From a virus (taxonomy: Duplodnaviria; Caudoviricetes), in the IMG/VR virus record IMGVR_UViG_3300033481_000001, positions 1 to 63,863 of that record: a stretch of 63,863 bases of DNA. One strand, given 5' to 3'. Position 1 is the first letter of the stretch, and each line of letters opens with the position of its first letter. Position numbers and translations under genes: made by a program. Below the pieces are notes generated by a model, which did not search any database, was not told where the DNA came from, and was given only the letters and a program-made list of their open reading frames with translations. Shown here one piece after another: positions 1,047-19,607 of the stretch.

Positions 1047-1544
1047 TCATGACCTGCCGCCTTTCGCTTCGATCGCCTTCCACGCCTTCGCCACCATGGC
1101 CAGAACCTTGCGCGCGTAGCGCTTGCTTCGCCCGCAGTGGCCCGAGTTGTACGCGCCAAGGCCGCTGACAAGGCCGCTGCACCAAACCTCGCAGAGCGCG
1201 AGCCAGCGCGCCCCAGTGTCGATGCAGGTTGCCGGGTCTCGAAGCTGCGCGCGCGTCCGTCCGTTCCGCGCTACACCATGCAGCTGGAAGGCGCACGACT
1301 CTCCGGCGGCTCCTCGCACGTCCATTCGGCAGTGGCTCTCAACGCGCATGATTGCCACCAGTCTGACAGGATGCTGCAGGTACCTCCGTGCCGACGCGTC
1401 CACGTGCGACGCTAAGCTTTCACTCCCCGGGCAGAGCGCAGACAGCGCGCGCTCAGTCGTGGTGGCAGCGTTCCCAGGCCGCACCGGCAGCACAACCATC
1501 AGCGCGGACCAGAAGATGGCCAGGATGATGAGGAACAGCTTCAT
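1047..1544 (-). CDS. Lytic transglycosylase (SLT domain) with N-terminal signal/TM segment
   Basis: LVAIMRVES catalytic Glu motif, CAFQL (GLMQ-like), CIDTGARWL, GLGAYNSG; hydrophobic N-terminus MKLFLIILAIFWSALMVV. Confidence 0.8.
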   Translation of the reverse strand: MKLFLIILAIFWSALMVVLPVRPGNAATTTERALSALCPGSESLASHVDASARRYLQHPVRLVAIMRVESHCRMDVRGAAGESCAFQLHGVARNGRTRAQLRDPATCIDTGARWLALCEVWCSGLVSGLGAYNSGHCGRSKRYARKVLAMVAKAWKAIEAKGGRS

Positions 1545-1900
1545 GGGACACGATATCCTTCCTCGCGACGTGCCTTCTGATCGCGCAGCCATTCGCCGAA
1601 CTTCATCGGCGGGTCTTCGTTGAGATACGCCTGGTATCGCTTCTGGCTGCGCGTGAGCCTCGGTGGTGGTGGACTGGACTCGCGCATCGCCAGCTTGCCG
1701 GACTCTGTGACCATGTATACATGCATGCCTCCGGTCAGATCGCCCATGCTTCCGCGATCGACCATCAGACCGTCTGCAATCAGAGCGTCAATGTCGACGT
1801 TTCCCTTGTCGCACACGTAGCGGTTTCGGTACTGGTCTCCTTGCCCGTGCTGGTCGACGCCTAGCGAGTGCTGCAGGATGTGCAGTTGGTTTGGGGTCAT
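1541..1900 (-). CDS. Hypothetical phage protein
   Basis: 119-aa ORF coupled to both neighbours by ATGA overlaps. Confidence 0.6.
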   Translation of the reverse strand: MTPNQLHILQHSLGVDQHGQGDQYRNRYVCDKGNVDIDALIADGLMVDRGSMGDLTGGMHVYMVTESGKLAMRESSPPPPRLTRSQKRYQAYLNEDPPMKFGEWLRDQKARREEGYRVP

Positions 1901-2391
1901 GGCCGGAACCCCTTCGCGGCGGCGGCGTTGAATTCGTCGGTGATCCGAACGACAGCGTCACCGAATTCCTGCGTTGCGACCGTCTTTGTGTCGCTGTCAA
2001 GCACCCGTTCCCACGCCTTCGCCCGCGCCAGAAGCTCACGCATGGTCTCCTCCGACACCACGCAGTCCTCTCCCGGCGCAACGGTGTCGTTCATGTTTTG
2101 CTCCATGCGCTCGATGTCTGCCATGGTCAGCATGCTAGTCGTCCCTCCCGTCGCCGTCGTGGCCGGCTGGACGGTGCGCCTCGGATAGGAGCATGGAGGC
2201 TTCGACGATGAAGTCACAATGCGAGTGTCCGTCTCCCAATCCATATGCCCACCTGTACCGAGGATTGTCCACGCTGACGACGTCGAAGCGAACACCGAAC
2301 ATGAGCGACGCCGCGCCAATAGACGCGCATGTTTCTTCAGCCATTACTAACGCCATCGCCGCGCGCTTCATCTCGGCCCGCGTGAGCGCCT

Positions 2392-2583
2392 TCATGGCCG
2401 CTTGCCTTTCGCGATCTCCTCGATCGCCTCTTCGATTCTCGCACGGCTCACCGGCCTGATCGGCTGGCCAGTCTCCCACCTGCGCACCGTGTTCGGCGCA
2501 ACCCTGGACTCCCCAGCGATGGCGTTGCGCTCTGCTGCTGTGAGCCGCTGCGGCACCACAAACGTGAACTTTTTCTTTCGCAT
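2392..2583 (-). CDS. Small Cro-like HTH DNA-binding protein
   Basis: AIAGESRVAPNTVRRWETG helix-turn-helix pattern; promoter directly upstream. Confidence 0.65.
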   Translation of the reverse strand: MRKKKFTFVVPQRLTAAERNAIAGESRVAPNTVRRWETGQPIRPVSRARIEEAIEEIAKGKRP

Positions 2584-2590
2584 GTCACCC

Positions 2591-2619
2591 ATGATGAATC
2601 AAGTTGGGGTGGATGTCAA
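2591..2619 (-). promoter_or_regulatory. Sigma70-type promoter, leaderless
   Basis: TTGACA-N17-CATCAT, then 7 nt to ATG at 2583. Confidence 0.65.
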
Positions 2620-3059
2620 GCGCTGATTTCCAGCTGCAGCGCCTTGAACGAGCACGTTATCTCGCACCCGAGCGAAGCCGCTAGGAACGTCACCAGACGC
2701 GCGTCCGGGAAGGCCTCGAAGACGAGCGTCAACTCCTCGTGCTCCTTGTCGTCCTTGCCCTTGACGGCGGCCGTTGCCTGCACGCCCTCGCAGTCCAGAA
2801 TCTCCGCATTGCCAGTGCCGGACAGCTCCGCCTTGGCGTGGTACGCGTCGATGGGGATTACGCACTTCTTGATGTCTCTGGCAGCCATCATATGCCACTG
2901 CTTCATCGCCGAGTCTCCGAGCCATTCAGCCGATTCGATGTCGAACGGCTTAACCAGCTCGAACCGCACGCGCCTGAGAATCGTGCTCGGATCGTCTGGA
3001 CTCTTGCGAGCGCGCAAAATGGCCGACTTGAGCACCGCTGAGAATCCGGCGTCTTTCAT
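2616..3059 (-). CDS. Hypothetical protein
   Basis: ORF from MKDAGF with protein-like composition. Confidence 0.6.
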   Translation of the reverse strand: MKDAGFSAVLKSAILRARKSPDDPSTILRRVRFELVKPFDIESAEWLGDSAMKQWHMMAARDIKKCVIPIDAYHAKAELSGTGNAEILDCEGVQATAAVKGKDDKEHEELTLVFEAFPDARLVTFLAASLGCEITCSFKALQLEISA

Positions 3060-3533
3060 GCCTACCACCACGCCTTGAAAGCTTCCTTGGTGACCTTCGC
3101 CGCGCCAAGTGCCGCCACGATCGCCACCGGGACGGTAAGCGTCGAACCCGCGTAGGCGTCGATTCGGTGGGCCTGCAGAGCAAGCCATCCTGCTGCCGTC
3201 CACGCTGCGGTAGAGACGCCGAGGATGAGTGCTCCGGCACAGACGCCGGCCAGCTTGTCGAGGATTCGTTCTGTCGTGGTCATGGTTGGGTCCTTTCGTT
3301 GGTTGTTTCTTCGAGCGCTTTGATCTCCGTTGCCCTAGGCAGCGCCCAGTCTCTTCTCCATAGCCGAGCAGCTTTGTCGATTGCATCATCAACGTCTGTG
3401 GCGGTGACGTCTAGGTAGGTCTGATTAACCTGCGCGATCCAAACACGATAGGGTTTGCCTTTCATGGATTGTGCCTTTCGTTGGTTGTCCATTCTGCGGT
3501 CAGTTTCGATCCGAAGTCCTGCGCGGCGCGGGC

Positions 3534-15866: not shown

Positions 15867-16231
15867 CACGCCCCCATCGCGGCCATGAACTCGTCCACCG
15901 TATCGTAGCAGGTGATCGCCGGAAGGTAGTGGAACACGTTGATGCGCGGTCCGACGAGCCGCAGGTGCAGCCCGTGGTGCATGGCCCACCCCGTTTCGAA
16001 GTCCTTGCCACCGCGGCCCGGCTCGTCGTCGGTGAAGAGCACGAACCATCCGGCGTGTTCGATGTCGACAAGGTCCTGCTCCGCGCATCTAGCTGGATGC
16101 TTTCCGATAGCAAGCCCTTCCTGCTCAAGCCACGTTGAGGTCACGACATGCCCGGAGGCACACAGTCTGTCTGCGTAGCCGCGGAGCTCGGCCTGGCGCT
16201 CGAAGCGGGCGGCTAGGTAGAGGGTGGACAT
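15866..16231 (-). CDS. Nucleoside 2-deoxyribosyltransferase-like protein
   Basis: LYLAARF, DLVDI, GGKDFETGWAM motifs. Confidence 0.75.
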   Translation of the reverse strand: MSTLYLAARFERQAELRGYADRLCASGHVVTSTWLEQEGLAIGKHPARCAEQDLVDIEHAGWFVLFTDDEPGRGGKDFETGWAMHHGLHLRLVGPRINVFHYLPAITCYDTVDEFMAAMGA

Positions 16232-16921
16232 CAGCGCGACTTTCTTCGCTGTAGTTCCGCGGCTCGCTTCCGCCTGCGCACATTCGACGATCGATCAAGC
16301 CGTCGCTGCATCCTGGCTTGCGCACTCTGCGTGGACCACCTCCACGTCGCCATCCAGATTTCACGCGGGCTGAGCACGGAGCACGAATAATCGCCGATCC
16401 CGAAGTCCATGCCGATGATCGTAGGCTTTGGCAATCTCATTTCGTAGCTGTAGCGCATGGCGTCTATTCTGTCATCTGACTGCTCGACGTGGTCACGCAG
16501 GTACGGCGCCGACAGCAACGACACCTCGGCGGCTGGAACCTGCACCATAATGGCGCGTCCTTCGGGAACCACGCCGAAGCGATCTGGCACGATGTCGAAG
16601 AGCGGCAGCAGCGGCCCCTTAGTTGCCGTCGCTTCCTTGGCCAGACGATCGAAATCTTCGGGACGAACCAGAACAGTGGCCATCAGAACAGCCTCCCTTG
16701 CTTGCTCTCCGCCGCCGCGACAGCGGCCCGAAGCTGCCGGGTAGCCTCGGCCTCGGACAGCGGTTGCGTGAGCCTGCAGACGTCGGCGATGAGGGCGGCG
16801 CGTTCCTCCCACTCGGCTAGGCACGATGCACATTCGATCATCGCTTCCTGATGACGCTGGCACGGACACTGCTCGCTCATCTTGCGCCCTAGCGGGCACG
16901 TCGCGCGGTATGGGTGCGTGT

Positions 16922-18511
16922 TCATATTGCTTCCCCCAAGAGCGAAAGTTGCTCAGGAGACCGGTGCGCCTCGGCCCATGCGATGCGGGCACGCGCGATC
17001 TCGCAGAAGTCGGGATCCTGCTCGATGCCGATGAATGAGTAACGTTCTAGAGCCGCCGCCTTTCCCGTCGATCCGCTGCCCGCGAACGGGTCCAGGATGT
17101 GCCCGCCGGCCGGCGTGATGAGCTTGCACAGGTAGCGCATGAGCGACGTGGGCTTTACGCAACAGTGATGATTGAGTCTCTCTTTCGCTCCACGGTTTCT
17201 TGGGTTGTTCCCACCGGGAGCGTCTGGATCACGGGATGGGTCTTGGCGTTTCGGCGCGCACTCTTCGGCGCTCCTTTCCCTCAGCCACGACTCTACGCAC
17301 GTGGCAAGGTCTGCACCTTCCGTACAGTGGCCACCCCTGCTTGCTGAGATACCAGTCCTGAGTTCCCACGGGCTTGAATTGGCCACACAGACCACATGGC
17401 TTCCACCATTCCCCGCCCTTCCAAACACATCCGCCATGCATCCGTTTGTGTGCCGTCGCGCTGATCGCTTGCAGGTTTCCAACCCTGTTGTCAAGCTTGT
17501 CACCGTTGATGTGATGGATTGAATAGCCGGATGGAACGGGTCCGTTGAAAGACTCCCACACCAGCACATGCTCCATGCGGACCCTTCTCTGTCTCGGATC
17601 GTAGACCCTTCTGTAACCCTTTGCGGAGACAGTCCCGTAACCGCCAGGAGCCGATGAGATAGGACCTCGTTTACCCATGACGGATCAGCATATGAAACTT
17701 GTAGATATCTGTCAAGCCCTTCCTCACGATCTGCGCGCGTCGCCTTGACGCCGTAGAAGAAACGGGAGGCGCTGCCGGTGTCGCCAAAGCCGAAACTGTC
17801 GCGCTCAGTCTCCTCTCCCTTTGCGCACGATTTGAACGCGCCGTTGTGCCTGATGCTGTCGGATCCATCGCTCTCCGGAAACAACGCCGCGATCTCGTCG
17901 CTGCCGTCGGTGATGAGGTTGGCTGGCCAGCGGCCACGATCGTGTTCGGCAACAACGGGACGGCTTCCATTGGTTTCCCCTGATCCGTATCGGCCACCAT
18001 TGCTCGCCTTTCCATTGCCACCGCCAGGAACGGTAGTTCCAGGATCAATGCGACACGCGTCGATGTTGAGCGCTCCTGTCGCGAACCGCTTGATGTTCGC
18101 CGCGACGGTACCGACGATCGGCTTGCGCAGGAGCCACCAGTCTTCCAACGCAGGCTTGAGCGCGGTTCCAATCCCGCCATCAAGGTTGAGCGACTTCGGA
18201 AACCCGGTTCCGAAGATGAACGAGACGCGGTCTCGCACCTCCCATCCGCCATTCTCCCAAGCTGTCGCAGTCCAGTGCGACGTGCGAGGCAGCGCCCAAA
18301 CCAGCGCATGGGCCCCAGGCTTTACCACTCGAAGACACTCGGACGCAACCTGCGCCATCCACGCGATCCAGTTGTCGCGCCCTCCCTTGTCCTTGTCCCA
18401 GGATTTGTTCATGAAGGCGATCCCTGCCGGTGGGTCGGTCACGATGGCGTCGAAGTAGTCGCCAGCGAACGTCGGCAGGACGGCCAGGCAGTCGCCGTGC
18501 AGGATGCTCAC
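16922..18511 (-). CDS. DNA methyltransferase (N6/N4 beta order) with ~150-codon internal insertion
   Basis: IVTDPPA, GFPKS, GRWPAN, ASRFFY, VKPTSLMRYL, ILDPFAGSGSTG. Confidence 0.88.
   Translation of the reverse strand: MSILHGDCLAVLPTFAGDYFDAIVTDPPAGIAFMNKSWDKDKGGRDNWIAWMAQVASECLRVVKPGAHALVWALPRTSHWTATAWENGGWEVRDRVSFIFGTGFPKSLNLDGGIGTALKPALEDWWLLRKPIVGTVAANIKRFATGALNIDACRIDPGTTVPGGGNGKASNGGRYGSGETNGSRPVVAEHDRGRWPANLITDGSDEIAALFPESDGSDSIRHNGAFKSCAKGEETERDSFGFGDTGSASRFFYGVKATRADREEGLDRYLQVSYADPSWVNEVLSHRLLAVTGLSPQRVTEGSTIRDREGSAWSMCWCGSLSTDPFHPAIQSITSTVTSLTTGLETCKRSARRHTNGCMADVFGRAGNGGSHVVCVANSSPWELRTGISASRGGHCTEGADLATCVESWLRERSAEECAPKRQDPSRDPDAPGGNNPRNRGAKERLNHHCCVKPTSLMRYLCKLITPAGGHILDPFAGSGSTGKAAALERYSFIGIEQDPDFCEIARARIAWAEAHRSPEQLSLLGEAI
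17229..17678 (-). CDS. HNH endonuclease nested out of frame in the methyltransferase
   Basis: EHVLVWESFNGPVPSGYSIHHINGDKLDNRVGNL plus CxxC...CxxC. Confidence 0.9.
   Translation of the reverse strand: MGKRGPISSAPGGYGTVSAKGYRRVYDPRQRRVRMEHVLVWESFNGPVPSGYSIHHINGDKLDNRVGNLQAISATAHKRMHGGCVWKGGEWWKPCGLCGQFKPVGTQDWYLSKQGWPLYGRCRPCHVRRVVAEGKERRRVRAETPRPIP
17687..17715 (-). promoter_or_regulatory. Intragenic sigma70 promoter for the HNH gene
   Basis: TTGACA-N17-TATGCT, 8 nt before HNH ATG. Confidence 0.8.
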
Positions 18512-18520
18512 GGCTTCCCC

Positions 18521-18724
18521 CTACGCAAGCTTGTCCTCGGCCGGCAAGAGCACCTTGCGAGCCGACGACACCGCATAGAGGGCGATCCACGTGGCTGGAC
18601 GCTCCTTTGCGCGGCGGGCGGCCTTGCGGATCATGGCGTCTTCGGTTGGCGTGAACCTCACCGAGTGGGTGCGGGAAAGAATCGTCGATGCTGGCTTGCG
18701 GGGACGGCCGATTTTCTTGGTCAT
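18521..18724 (-). CDS. Ribbon-helix-helix-like DNA-binding protein
   Basis: GRPRKP, then SVRFTPTEDAMIRKAA. Confidence 0.6.
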   Translation of the reverse strand: MTKKIGRPRKPASTILSRTHSVRFTPTEDAMIRKAARRAKERPATWIALYAVSSARKVLLPAEDKLA

Positions 18725-19416
18725 GCTTTCACCTCGAACTCGTGAAGGGCACCGTTCCTTCCGTCCTCGCTGACGACGAACATCGTTCCCACGTCGGTGC
18801 TATCGTTGACGAACATCTTGAGCCATTGGTCCTTGGTGGCCGTAAGGCTGGCGAACGTCGTCGCTTTCTTGGAGCACCACTCGGCTAGAGCATCTGCGGT
18901 TGCGAACACGGGAGACACCGGGCTTCCTTCGCTGCATGTCTCCCAGAGCTGGAAGCCATCGCCCGTTGGAGGTTCCTGTTCCGTCCATGCCTTATATTCA
19001 CCCTTCACCGCCGGATCGATTGCGTCGCCTCCGCACGTCTTGCAGATGCCCCACTTCTCAGGATCTAGTCCAGCCGCCTTGACGATTGCCTTGGTAGCCG
19101 ACCAACGATCGCATGCATCATGTCCGCCGAATGGAGAAGGGCTACGTCCTGCTAACCCAACCGACAACTCTGACATGTCGGATGACAAGGATGACACGCC
19201 TGCCTCTATCAACCACGGATGCACCGTCCCTCTCACGGAGTCATCACCCGCTATTAGAATTAGGTGAACAAGATGCTCTAGAGCACTCCCCGCAGCCGTC
19301 TGCCCATTCTCGCAGTCAGGGCACTTGCGGTAGTACGGATTCAGGTATCCTTCCCACACCTTGTTCATCGGCCAAGCGAAATCCATCGGTACACGCTTCA
19401 ACGTTCTGTGTCCCAT
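18721..19416 (-). CDS. Hypothetical protein with CxxC pairs
   Basis: GGAGG RBS; CPDC and CKTCGG. Confidence 0.7.
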   Translation of the reverse strand: MGHRTLKRVPMDFAWPMNKVWEGYLNPYYRKCPDCENGQTAAGSALEHLVHLILIAGDDSVRGTVHPWLIEAGVSSLSSDMSELSVGLAGRSPSPFGGHDACDRWSATKAIVKAAGLDPEKWGICKTCGGDAIDPAVKGEYKAWTEQEPPTGDGFQLWETCSEGSPVSPVFATADALAEWCSKKATTFASLTATKDQWLKMFVNDSTDVGTMFVVSEDGRNGALHEFEVKA

Positions 19417-19435
19417 GCTTCCTCCATTCACGCGG

Positions 19436-19464
19436 ACGGTAGCACGCCTAGATTTGAGTTTCAA
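19436..19464 (-). promoter_or_regulatory. Leftward sigma70 promoter
   Basis: TTGAAA-N17-TACCGT. Confidence 0.6.
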
Positions 19465-19498
19465 GAAACTTTTTATGGCTGGTGTCTATGACGCAATT

Positions 19499-19607
19499 GT
19501 AGGACTCCGTCCTACGCAACCATGGGAATTTGTCCTACAAGGTTGCGAGAAATCGTCCTACATCCAGGCAAGCGCTTGTCCTACAAGAACTTGGGCCAAC
19601 GTCCTAC
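19499..19607. repeat. GTCCTAC array with 23-bp period
   Basis: Copies start at 19509, 19532, 19555, 19578, 19601; inverted copy at 19499-19505. Confidence 0.9.

Follow-up and report, generated by a model that had tools for sequence, protein, structure and literature searches.

We analysed a 63,863-nucleotide (nt) stretch of viral DNA (the window; a 63.9-kb IMG/VR virus record, IMGVR_UViG_3300033481_000001, with a CheckV completeness of 71%) in which a DNA methyltransferase (methylase) gene carries an HNH endonuclease gene inside its own coding sequence. All features of this methylase/HNH locus are on the minus strand (Table 1). The methylase open reading frame (ORF) of 529 amino acids (aa) matched Pfam N6_N4_Mtase (PF01555) in two stretches (E 1.7e-23; 84.1 bits, cut-off 26.7), the best being residues 440–506, and also PHROG 67 DNA methyltransferase (E 5e-54). 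As a preliminary description of this DNA had stated, the methylase frame has no stop codon, the ORF being open from end to end. A Shine-Dalgarno-like GGGGGA was seen by eye 4–5 nt upstream of the GTG start. The motif order is that of the beta class (IV...X-I), with DPP.. in the N-terminal part and H..VKP and DPFAGSGS in the C-terminal part. Matches of the C part in a PDB sequence search were to beta-class methyltransferases, including CcrM (6PBD) and M.RsrI (1EG2).

On the same strand, a second ORF of 149 aa matched Pfam HNH_3 (PF13392; E 1.9e-16, 59.9 bits, cut-off 24.8) and ten PHROG HNH families, which confirmed the HNH/zinc-finger nuclease described earlier in another frame (frame +2) of the gene. 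Residues H37, H55, H56, N64, N68, H77, C84, C95, C98 and C125 were invariant across 26 relatives, and these conserved His/Asn catalytic and Cys metal residues, together with the profile score, place the protein in the HNH_3 (beta-beta-alpha-Me) group. The AlphaFold2 model of the HNH frame had a mean predicted local distance difference test (pLDDT) score of 90.5 (26-row alignment). Its top PDB fold match was I-HmuI (1U3E; probability 1.00, 71 columns) and the second was Hpy99I. A PDB sequence search with the HNH protein gave chance-level matches only (E 0.2 and 0.37). In tblastn against 50,697 phage records no match was found at E ≤ 1e-8, and at E ≤ 1e-3 only distant HNH genes of at most 36% identity appeared. 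The HNH frame is closed upstream by a TGA three codons before the ATG, so the nuclease must start at its own ATG. In the relatives, too, the HNH frame becomes open no more than a few codons upstream. We considered a fusion of the methylase N part to the HNH protein by frameshifting, which this TGA, 9 nt before the ATG, rules out.

Table 1. Features of the methylase/HNH locus in the window, and HNH genes of the invaded methylase at locus L005
Record	Feature	Position	Strand	Remarks
Window	DNA methyltransferase ORF, 529 aa	16922..18511	(-)	GTG start; open through the insert
Window	Native methylase N part	17711..18511	(-)	Motif IV (DPPA), FPKS, target-recognition region, SRFFY...ADREEGLD; alignments A1 and A3
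Window	Native methylase C part	16922..17254	(-)	PKRQ...NHHCCVKP (motif X variant), DPFAGSGST (S-adenosylmethionine, AdoMet, motif I), stop codon
Window	Inserted cassette, ~450 nt	17255..17710	(-)	Absent from L085; read in the methylase frame, an unconserved linker of ~150 residues
Window	HNH nuclease ORF, 149 aa	17229..17678	(-)	Frame +2 relative to the methylase; HNH core and CxxC...CxxC zinc ribbon
Window	TGA in HNH frame	17685..17687	(-)	Three codons (9 nt) before the ATG; closes the frame upstream
Window	-35-like TTGACA	17710..17715	(-)	Native Leu-Asp codons (CTT GAC) of the conserved GLD motif plus one base
Window	-10-like TATGCT	17687..17692	(-)	17-nt spacer; 8 nt before the HNH ATG
L005	HNH 1	1181-1744		Out of frame, host frame open
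L005	HNH 2	2077-2706		Free-standing, splits the gene
L005	HNH 3	2983-3441		HNH family of the window; followed by a host-frame stop at HPT*TVKP

The closest methylase that we found, L085:2498-3637 (379 aa, 73% identical), is without ~150 codons, and its gap falls between ...ADREEGL(D/E) and PK(R/Q).... Alignment to this insertion-free allele bears out the segment of about 150 codons that had been described between ADREEGLD and the methylase C part, with the extent given in Table 1. The boundary is ambiguous by ~9 nt, because RYL aligns with AFL. By tblastn, the N part is 70% and the C part 84% identical to L085. A 1924-nt wetland metagenome contig of ~87% identity also spans the site with ~447 nt less. 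Joints at <95% likeness were taken as coming from other organisms, and we read this contig as a related virus with an empty site. Four DNA sequencing runs of a single study contained parts of the stretch or relatives of it, and no RNA run was listed for it. In insert-free methylases (20 with both motifs found, of 28 examined) the loop from RFFY...ER.xGL to H.TVKP varies by ~0–45 residues. From these alignments, the cassette is judged to occupy a naturally length-variable loop between two of the most conserved motifs of the gene, ER.xGLD and N.H(P/S)TVKP.

The preliminary description had placed the HNH gene wholly within the inserted segment. It does start inside the insert, but its last 26 nt (17254–17229, including the stop codon) are native methylase sequence outside it, and the insert minus the HNH coding sequence amounts to only ~33 nt. 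The term 'overprinted' is misleading: the HNH gene is an imported one with free-standing relatives, and what has been kept open is the host frame across it.

Group I introns are common carriers of homing HNH genes, and a self-splicing or otherwise removed RNA element that escaped recognition, with the open frame as a fail-safe or a coincidence, would account for such a gene here. Unorthodox phage introns that escape standard models are also mentioned in section 12 of PMC11855218. A search of Rfam with positions 16000–19500 gave no match at E ≤ 0.5 (two chance-level hits had E 0.58 and 0.7), and Pfam found in the methylase ORF no intein domain at E ≤ 0.01, only N6_N4_Mtase; the earlier remark that there are neither intein termini nor an intron core therefore stands. 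All but ~33 nt of the insert is HNH coding sequence, so there is no room for a ribozyme core outside the ORF. The conserved ribozyme core of group I/II introns was not found, a computation that leaves room for a novel ribozyme. Against an RNA element, the insert is almost wholly promoter and ORF, and splicing gives no reason why inserts should be stop-free and multiples of three across a deep clade with a G+C content (GC) of 0.39–0.64. The host-frame residues are unconstrained yet stop-free, as translation through the insert predicts. We regard removal at the RNA level as very unlikely. An intein was rejected as well: the segment lacks a Hint domain, does not start with Cys/Ser and does not end in His-Asn (read in the host frame, it starts ...GLD-RYLQ and ends ...EECA-PK), and its host-frame residues are not conserved.

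In the window alone, the probability that the methylase frame is open was 0.25 when codons were shuffled synonymously with the HNH protein fixed, and 0.29 when codons were redrawn from window usage. As this open frame and the promoter described below are both at chance level in the window, the case rests on the relatives, across which both exceed chance by a wide margin. A scan with the HNH-protein pattern yielded 80 viral loci and 30 loci from bacterial/archaeal genome assemblies. Stop codons were counted in the 55 loci (window and near-duplicates included) that matched at least 105 aa of the HNH protein. We observed the following. In the 30 loci embedded in a methylase, there was one methylase-frame stop in 3857 codons, vs 299 stops in the third frame. 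The one stop belongs to L022 and is a TGA, a codon that this contig apparently translates as Gly; hence 29 of the 30 loci are stop-free by the standard reading, and all 30 are so if L022 is read by code 25. Each of the 25 non-embedded loci, by contrast, had at least one stop in the corresponding frame (76 stops in 3167 codons). The methylase frame has no stop in nine embedded loci with a GC of 0.39–0.44, each of which has 11–18 third-frame stops. Across all embedded loci GC ranges from 0.39 to 0.64, which makes the contrast between embedded and non-embedded loci a conservative one. Synonymous shuffling within a gene is a weak null, for it keeps a codon and residue make-up already shaped by constraint (in L007 the shuffled frame is open with a probability as high as 1.0), and the free-standing relatives were therefore relied on as control. 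Stop-codon avoidance across insertion-bearing relatives, which the preliminary description had named as a check of its proposal, is thus apparent: 29/30 embedded loci were stop-free vs 0/25 of the non-embedded ones.

A tree of the HNH proteins was built from 53 sequences, with 23 distinct embedded and 21 distinct non-embedded ones; L015 and L022 were left out, as their HNH frames contain stops. A single clade (support 100/99) unites all 23 distinct embedded sequences; its internal branches are long, and it also includes two free-standing sequences. Free-standing genes form the sister groups. The embedded lineage has diverged to ~41% identity, with synonymous sites saturated, without fixing a host-frame stop. 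Its probable ancestors are free-standing HNH genes located directly 3' of methylase genes, and it is plausible that such an endonuclease gene, lying beside its target gene, moved into the target.

We compared the ratio of nonsynonymous to synonymous substitution rates (dN/dS) in the different frames. Between embedded loci, dN/dS across the insert in the HNH frame was 0.12–0.29 for 7 of 10 pairs; the remaining three had a saturated dS. In the methylase frame it was 0.64–1.50, and the amino-acid identity was that of the third frame. These values indicate that purifying selection within the insert acts on no frame but that of HNH, and that the methylase-frame product is a passenger linker whose one constraint is to lack stops. 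Outside the insert, the C part of the methylase had a dN/dS of 0.05–0.35 in 9 of 10 computable pairs of insert-bearing loci (0.70 in L007/L009; an eleventh pair was saturated), and the methylase flanks of the window compared with L085 gave 0.29. The methylase domain downstream of the insert is thus under purifying selection.

The 529-aa protein was also modelled with AlphaFold2. The mean pLDDT was 55.7 (22-row alignment), with 80–96 in the catalytic core and <50 for nearly all of residues 268–444. The segment had earlier been called non-protein-like in the methylase frame, and both its lack of conservation (dN/dS as above) and its low pLDDT agree with this. Since confidence is low outside the catalytic core and the alignment is shallow, the model cannot show that the loop is clear of the active site.

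Catalytic motif IV is defined as (D/S/N)PP(Y/F/W), with an aromatic last residue. The window (codons at 18425–18439), L085 and L086 have DPPA at this place and so depart from the aromatic rule, while the other 19 of the 22 aligned sequences have DPPY. An additional segment, GRD(N/H)W(I/V).W(M/L)A, is common to the same three methylases (alignment A3). They form a conserved subclade of putative enzymes. At motif X, where the window has HCCVKP, the insert-free L085 has HATVKS. As L085 shares variants at both motifs, HCCVKP and DPPA are traits of the methylase subclade and not effects of the insertion; the earlier suggestion that HCCVKP might be a warning sign of an inactivated methylase is therefore unlinked to the insert.

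These data bear on the possibility that the methylase is disrupted and decaying, and that its frame is open only by chance in a sequence of 58–60% GC. The window-only probabilities of 0.25–0.29, the DPPA and HCCVKP variants and the fragmented host gene of L005 and L006 all agree with decay. The DPPA and motif X variants, however, occur also in the insert-free L085, from which the flanks have diverged under a dN/dS of 0.29, and the C-terminal domain past the insert is under purifying selection among insert-bearing alleles. Moreover, decay does not fit with 29/30 embedded loci without host-frame stops, including the nine at GC ≤ 0.44 with their 11–18 third-frame stops. We consider this explanation very unlikely, the least probable of those weighed here.

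At the 5' junction, the preliminary description had reported a promoter, TTGACA-N17-TATGCT, 8 nt before the HNH ATG. It is present at 17715–17687 (-), matches 10 of 12 promoter positions and does lie at the junction, with the correction that its -35 hexamer consists of the native Leu-Asp codons of the GLD motif. It is the only promoter-like site in 4.5 kb, a number that shuffled sequence is also expected to give (1.0 +/- 1.1). In the relatives the element recurs: TTGACN-N16-18-TAnnnT was found at the junction in 19/25 embedded loci vs 6/1045 background windows (other 110-nt windows of the same loci). TTGAC at the -35 place was likewise found in 19/25 insert-bearing loci vs none of five insert-free alleles that encode GLD; these use CTC GAC, CTA GAC, CTA GAT (twice) and TTG GAT, none of which yields TTGAC. 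Such recurrence points to a sigma-70-type promoter conserved at the 5' junction. In eleven loci, the window among them, the distance from the end of the -10 element to the ATG is 5–8 nt, and from this spacing an mRNA with no leader or almost none is predicted. The distance is 29 nt in five loci, where a GGAGG Shine-Dalgarno sequence comes after the -10 element.

The HNH gene and its host gene do not have the same relatives. The HNH proteins of the window and L004 are 76–77% identical, whereas the methylase flanks are only 26% (N) and 55% (C) identical; the closest methylase (L085) is empty, while the closest HNH gene (L004) sits in a dissimilar methylase. The evidence for homing is indirect, and consists of presence and absence among close alleles, an HNH gene more similar than its flanks and I-HmuI as the top fold match (E 0.011). 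Free-standing relatives were found ~90 nt 3' of methylase genes in contigs of Planctomycetota and other metagenome-assembled genomes (MAGs). Eleven such genes adjacent to a methylase came from tblastn, and in further cases 6 of 7 upstream ORFs were ParB_N + N6_N4_Mtase by Pfam.

This constant association with methylases is also what would be expected of a nested nuclease-methylase partnership (restriction-modification-like or an addiction system), the alternative that the preliminary description had itself offered. The methylase would protect DNA that the HNH enzyme cuts, and nesting would provide joint inheritance and expression. The full-length HNH relatives are all inside or directly 3' of an N6_N4 methylase (30 embedded, 11 by tblastn, 6 by Pfam), the HNH gene has its own promoter, and HNH-type restriction enzymes exist, Hpy99I being the second fold match. 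A cognate nuclease, however, needs matching specificity, and similar HNH proteins sit in methylases with unlike target-recognition parts (76% for HNH against 26% for the N flank in the window/L004 pair); for this reason we rate the partnership lower than homing and consider it unlikely. The insertion point is, moreover, bordered by the most conserved motifs of the gene, as is typical of homing sites, and the best structural match is a homing enzyme. A member of this HNH family is also present, out of frame, in the L022 intein, and distant HNH_3 relatives lie in terminase inteins, which are classic homing contexts.

We conclude that the element is probably an unspliced, dual-coding cassette of a homing endonuclease, sited in a loop of naturally variable length and held free of host-frame stops by selection. 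This reading is supported because an empty allele, a variable loop, stop avoidance, selection in the HNH frame only, selection on the downstream methylase and a conserved promoter all point the same way. The preliminary description proposed in essence that an HNH gene of the homing type leaves its host methylase unharmed by using another frame in a tolerant loop, without intron or intein; this comparative evidence upholds the proposal. The cassette would consist of a promoter and a 149-codon HNH_3 gene in the loop of a beta-class N6/N4 methyltransferase, and would be spliced neither as RNA nor as protein. Translation of the methylase would run on across the insert and give a functional protein of 529 aa, in which ~150 residues form a disordered loop. 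The HNH protein would be made separately, from a (nearly) leaderless transcript starting at the junction promoter. It would cut insert-free methylase alleles of co-infecting relatives, whose repair would copy the cassette in, and selection against loss of the methylase would purge host-frame stops.

Several observations weigh against this cassette reading. In the window alone both the open frame (P 0.25–0.29) and the promoter match are within chance. The embedded sequences form one clade and hence are not independent samples; as they are one old lineage, the argument is that stops would have accumulated over its divergence, not that stops were avoided in 30 separate events. The fold match to I-HmuI is weak (E 0.011), and no PDB fold match reached E ≤ 0.001. 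With DPPA in place of DPPY in the window, L085 and L086 (3 of the 22 aligned), methyltransferase activity is not assured, and the native target-recognition region (149–254) also has low confidence in the 529-aa model. Every full-length relative examined is in or beside a methylase gene, which fits a nuclease-methylase partnership too. Finally, L005 and L006 carry the same insert in a methylase that is split into three ORFs and has a stop at HPT*TVKP, so an intact host gene is not universal.

The L005 methylase (L005:570-3727; L006 is a near-duplicate) has been invaded by three HNH genes (Table 1). Other methylases also carry more than one. L117:56-2836 (926 aa) is open across two out-of-frame HNH_3 genes (1021-1479 and 2197-2607) with an HNH-region GC of 0.40, and the methylase ORFs L009:1155-3158 and L034:1772-3628 are likewise open across two. 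In L009 and L034 the second HNH_3-like ORF is in frame +1 near the FPKS site; the L009 match, at 24.6 bits, is just below the 24.8 cut-off. Out-of-frame HNH_3 ORFs were seen at other positions as well: between query residues 162 and 183 of N6_N4 methylases in L045:1970-3673 and L049:2081-3574, and near residue 103–120 in L065:2579-4303, where the N-terminal methylase part is in a different frame. In L134:1307-3703 (799 aa, a Thiobacillus MAG contig), and likewise in L057, L063 and L073, no stop interrupts the frame that follows the HNH frame over the length of the HNH_3 core match. The ORFs neighbouring the locus in the window had no informative PHROG match except one family without assigned function.

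A cultured example is provided by Escherichia phage BUCT618 (L001:1483-3345; OM735461.1), whose annotated 620-aa 'site-specific DNA-methyltransferase' harbours, out of frame, an HNH ORF of 201 aa (1896-2501; PF13391/PF01844; frame +2; GC 0.50) near FPKS. The synonymous-shuffle probability of an open frame was 0.022 there, the record has no HNH annotation, and no promoter-like site was found in the insert. The word 'Escherichia' is absent from the text of PMC11855218.

The viral contig of L022 apparently uses code 25 (TGA=Gly): all eight in-frame TGA codons of its HNH gene (3001-3456) align with conserved Gly. Under table 25, L022:1649-3787 is an open 712-aa ParB-N6_N4 methylase, and the HNH gene is also open. 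An intein-like insert lies within HP|TQKP, starting with Cys and ending His-Asn|Thr (Intein_splicing score 25.9 bits, below the cut-off of 35.8), and the HNH family of the window is out of frame inside it. Further HNH_3 ORFs of 174–264 aa lie out of frame in Intein_splicing/Hint ORFs in L036, L038, L041, L042, L044, L048, L051 and L058 (for example, the HNH ORF L036:2659-3369 inside L036:1217-3523). Of the six intein-bearing host ORFs scanned, five also matched terminase large-subunit families, and the host frame was open across the HNH gene.

Published out-of-frame intein endonucleases include EndoVII-like ones of actinophages and that of the dnaX intein, as far as the sources describe them. 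Like these, the window has a putative homing endonuclease in another frame of host-translated sequence, and its family does the same within the intein of L022. Theirs are removed by protein splicing, whereas the loop in the window, without a Hint domain, a Cys/Ser start or a His-Asn end, must stay in the protein.

Free-standing phage homing endonucleases, such as the T4 seg and mob genes, carry out intronless homing. Like these and I-HmuI, the gene in the window encodes an HNH nuclease of small size that has a DNA-binding extension; it has expression signals of its own and is sited at or beside the presumed target gene. Free-standing genes, however, sit between genes or split them, as in L005, while the gene in the window leaves its host ORF unbroken.

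The closest published arrangement is the ShiLan domain of mycobacteriophage DNA methylases, described as a 195-aa HNH ORF that occupies the third frame of an insertion free of stops; signals of an intron or intein are lacking there, and leaderless translation was proposed (PMC11855218; Arsenault, Gosselin & Gogarten, Genes 2025; earlier and related papers on this domain are PMC9957025 and PMC12613952). A GenBank note for gp57 of phage Violet also reads 'HNH endonuclease domain out of frame'. We re-found the ShiLan-type insert in Violet gp57 and SG4 gp70, with a shuffled probability of an open frame of 0.001. Going by that report, the two systems share an insert in an N6_N4-type phage methylase, a stop-free host frame, an HNH ORF on the same strand in a different frame, a lack of intron and intein signatures, an in-frame product predicted to be disordered, a patchy distribution among related methylases and a proposal of leaderless translation. 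They differ in the nuclease, which is unrelated (BLASTP E 0.14 against the Violet ORF; PF01844 there, PF13392 here), in the site (after FPKS there, the GLD|HPTVKP loop here) and in the HNH frame (+1 in Violet, +2 in the window). No sigma-70-like promoter was found in the Violet insert, whereas one is conserved in the family of the window. The hosts described there are mycobacteriophages, those here uncultured viruses and MAGs of several phyla. The locus in the window thus has the four marks of hidden out-of-frame methylase HNH genes, namely an insertion absent in relatives, a stop-free host frame, HNH in another frame and no intron or intein; it is not homologous to the ShiLan HNH itself, the arrangement being the same and the gene family different.

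Section 3.6 of PMC11855218 describes a second, unrelated HNH/AP2-like ORF of 160 aa, out of frame in the divergent methylase gp60 of Pacc40, and related phages are said there to have similar free-standing genes next to the methylase. These parallel the free-standing relatives of our family 3' of methylase genes. Unlike the host protein in the window, that of Pacc40 is given as a helicase-methylase fusion. The Pacc40 ORF is not a close relative of the HNH gene in the window, because the latter had no match at E ≤ 1e-8 in the 50,697 phage records. Thus, the element cannot be called a new alternative to introns and inteins, as had been proposed, the arrangement having been published (PMC11855218) and noted in GenBank (Violet gp57). 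It is a new, widespread HNH family, found outside actinophages, of an arrangement first described in 2025, and not a new kind. What is added to the published kind is stop-avoidance statistics, frame-specific selection, the junction promoter and host breadth; the words 'promoter', 'metagenom' and 'purifying' do not occur in the text of PMC11855218.

Taking these loci together, we tentatively propose, at somewhat less than an even chance, a broader reading in which stop-free dual coding is a stable, selected third lifestyle of homing endonucleases beside introns and inteins, in the form of a self-sufficient, interconverting and methylase-favoured cassette. Its -35 element may come from recoded host codons, with an mRNA that is leaderless or led by a Shine-Dalgarno sequence. 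It may have persisted, over a deep divergence, across viruses of several bacterial phyla, at GC 0.39–0.64 and even in a host with TGA=Gly. It appears to interconvert with free-standing genes 3' of methylases and with an out-of-frame position in an intein at HPT(Q/V)KP. The two or three inserts per methylase in L117, L009, L034 and L005 suggest that methylases are a preferred substrate.

Homing endonuclease genes usually spare their host gene by means of self-splicing introns, inteins or an intergenic position. A fourth way, a harmless protein loop that is encoded in another frame, was proposed in the 2025 mycobacteriophage report from, as described there, a few related phages (PMC11855218). 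The present family gives this proposal a broader comparative footing, with an HNH family that is unrelated and uses a different site within the same family of enzymes, in dozens of uncultured viruses and MAG contigs. It also adds measurable selection against host-frame stops and a conserved promoter, which suggests how the hidden gene could be expressed. There is an annotation trap here, since over-long 'methylases' hide a nuclease gene. The compact, self-promoted nuclease cassettes and the permissive loop of beta-class methyltransferases would also provide material for tests.

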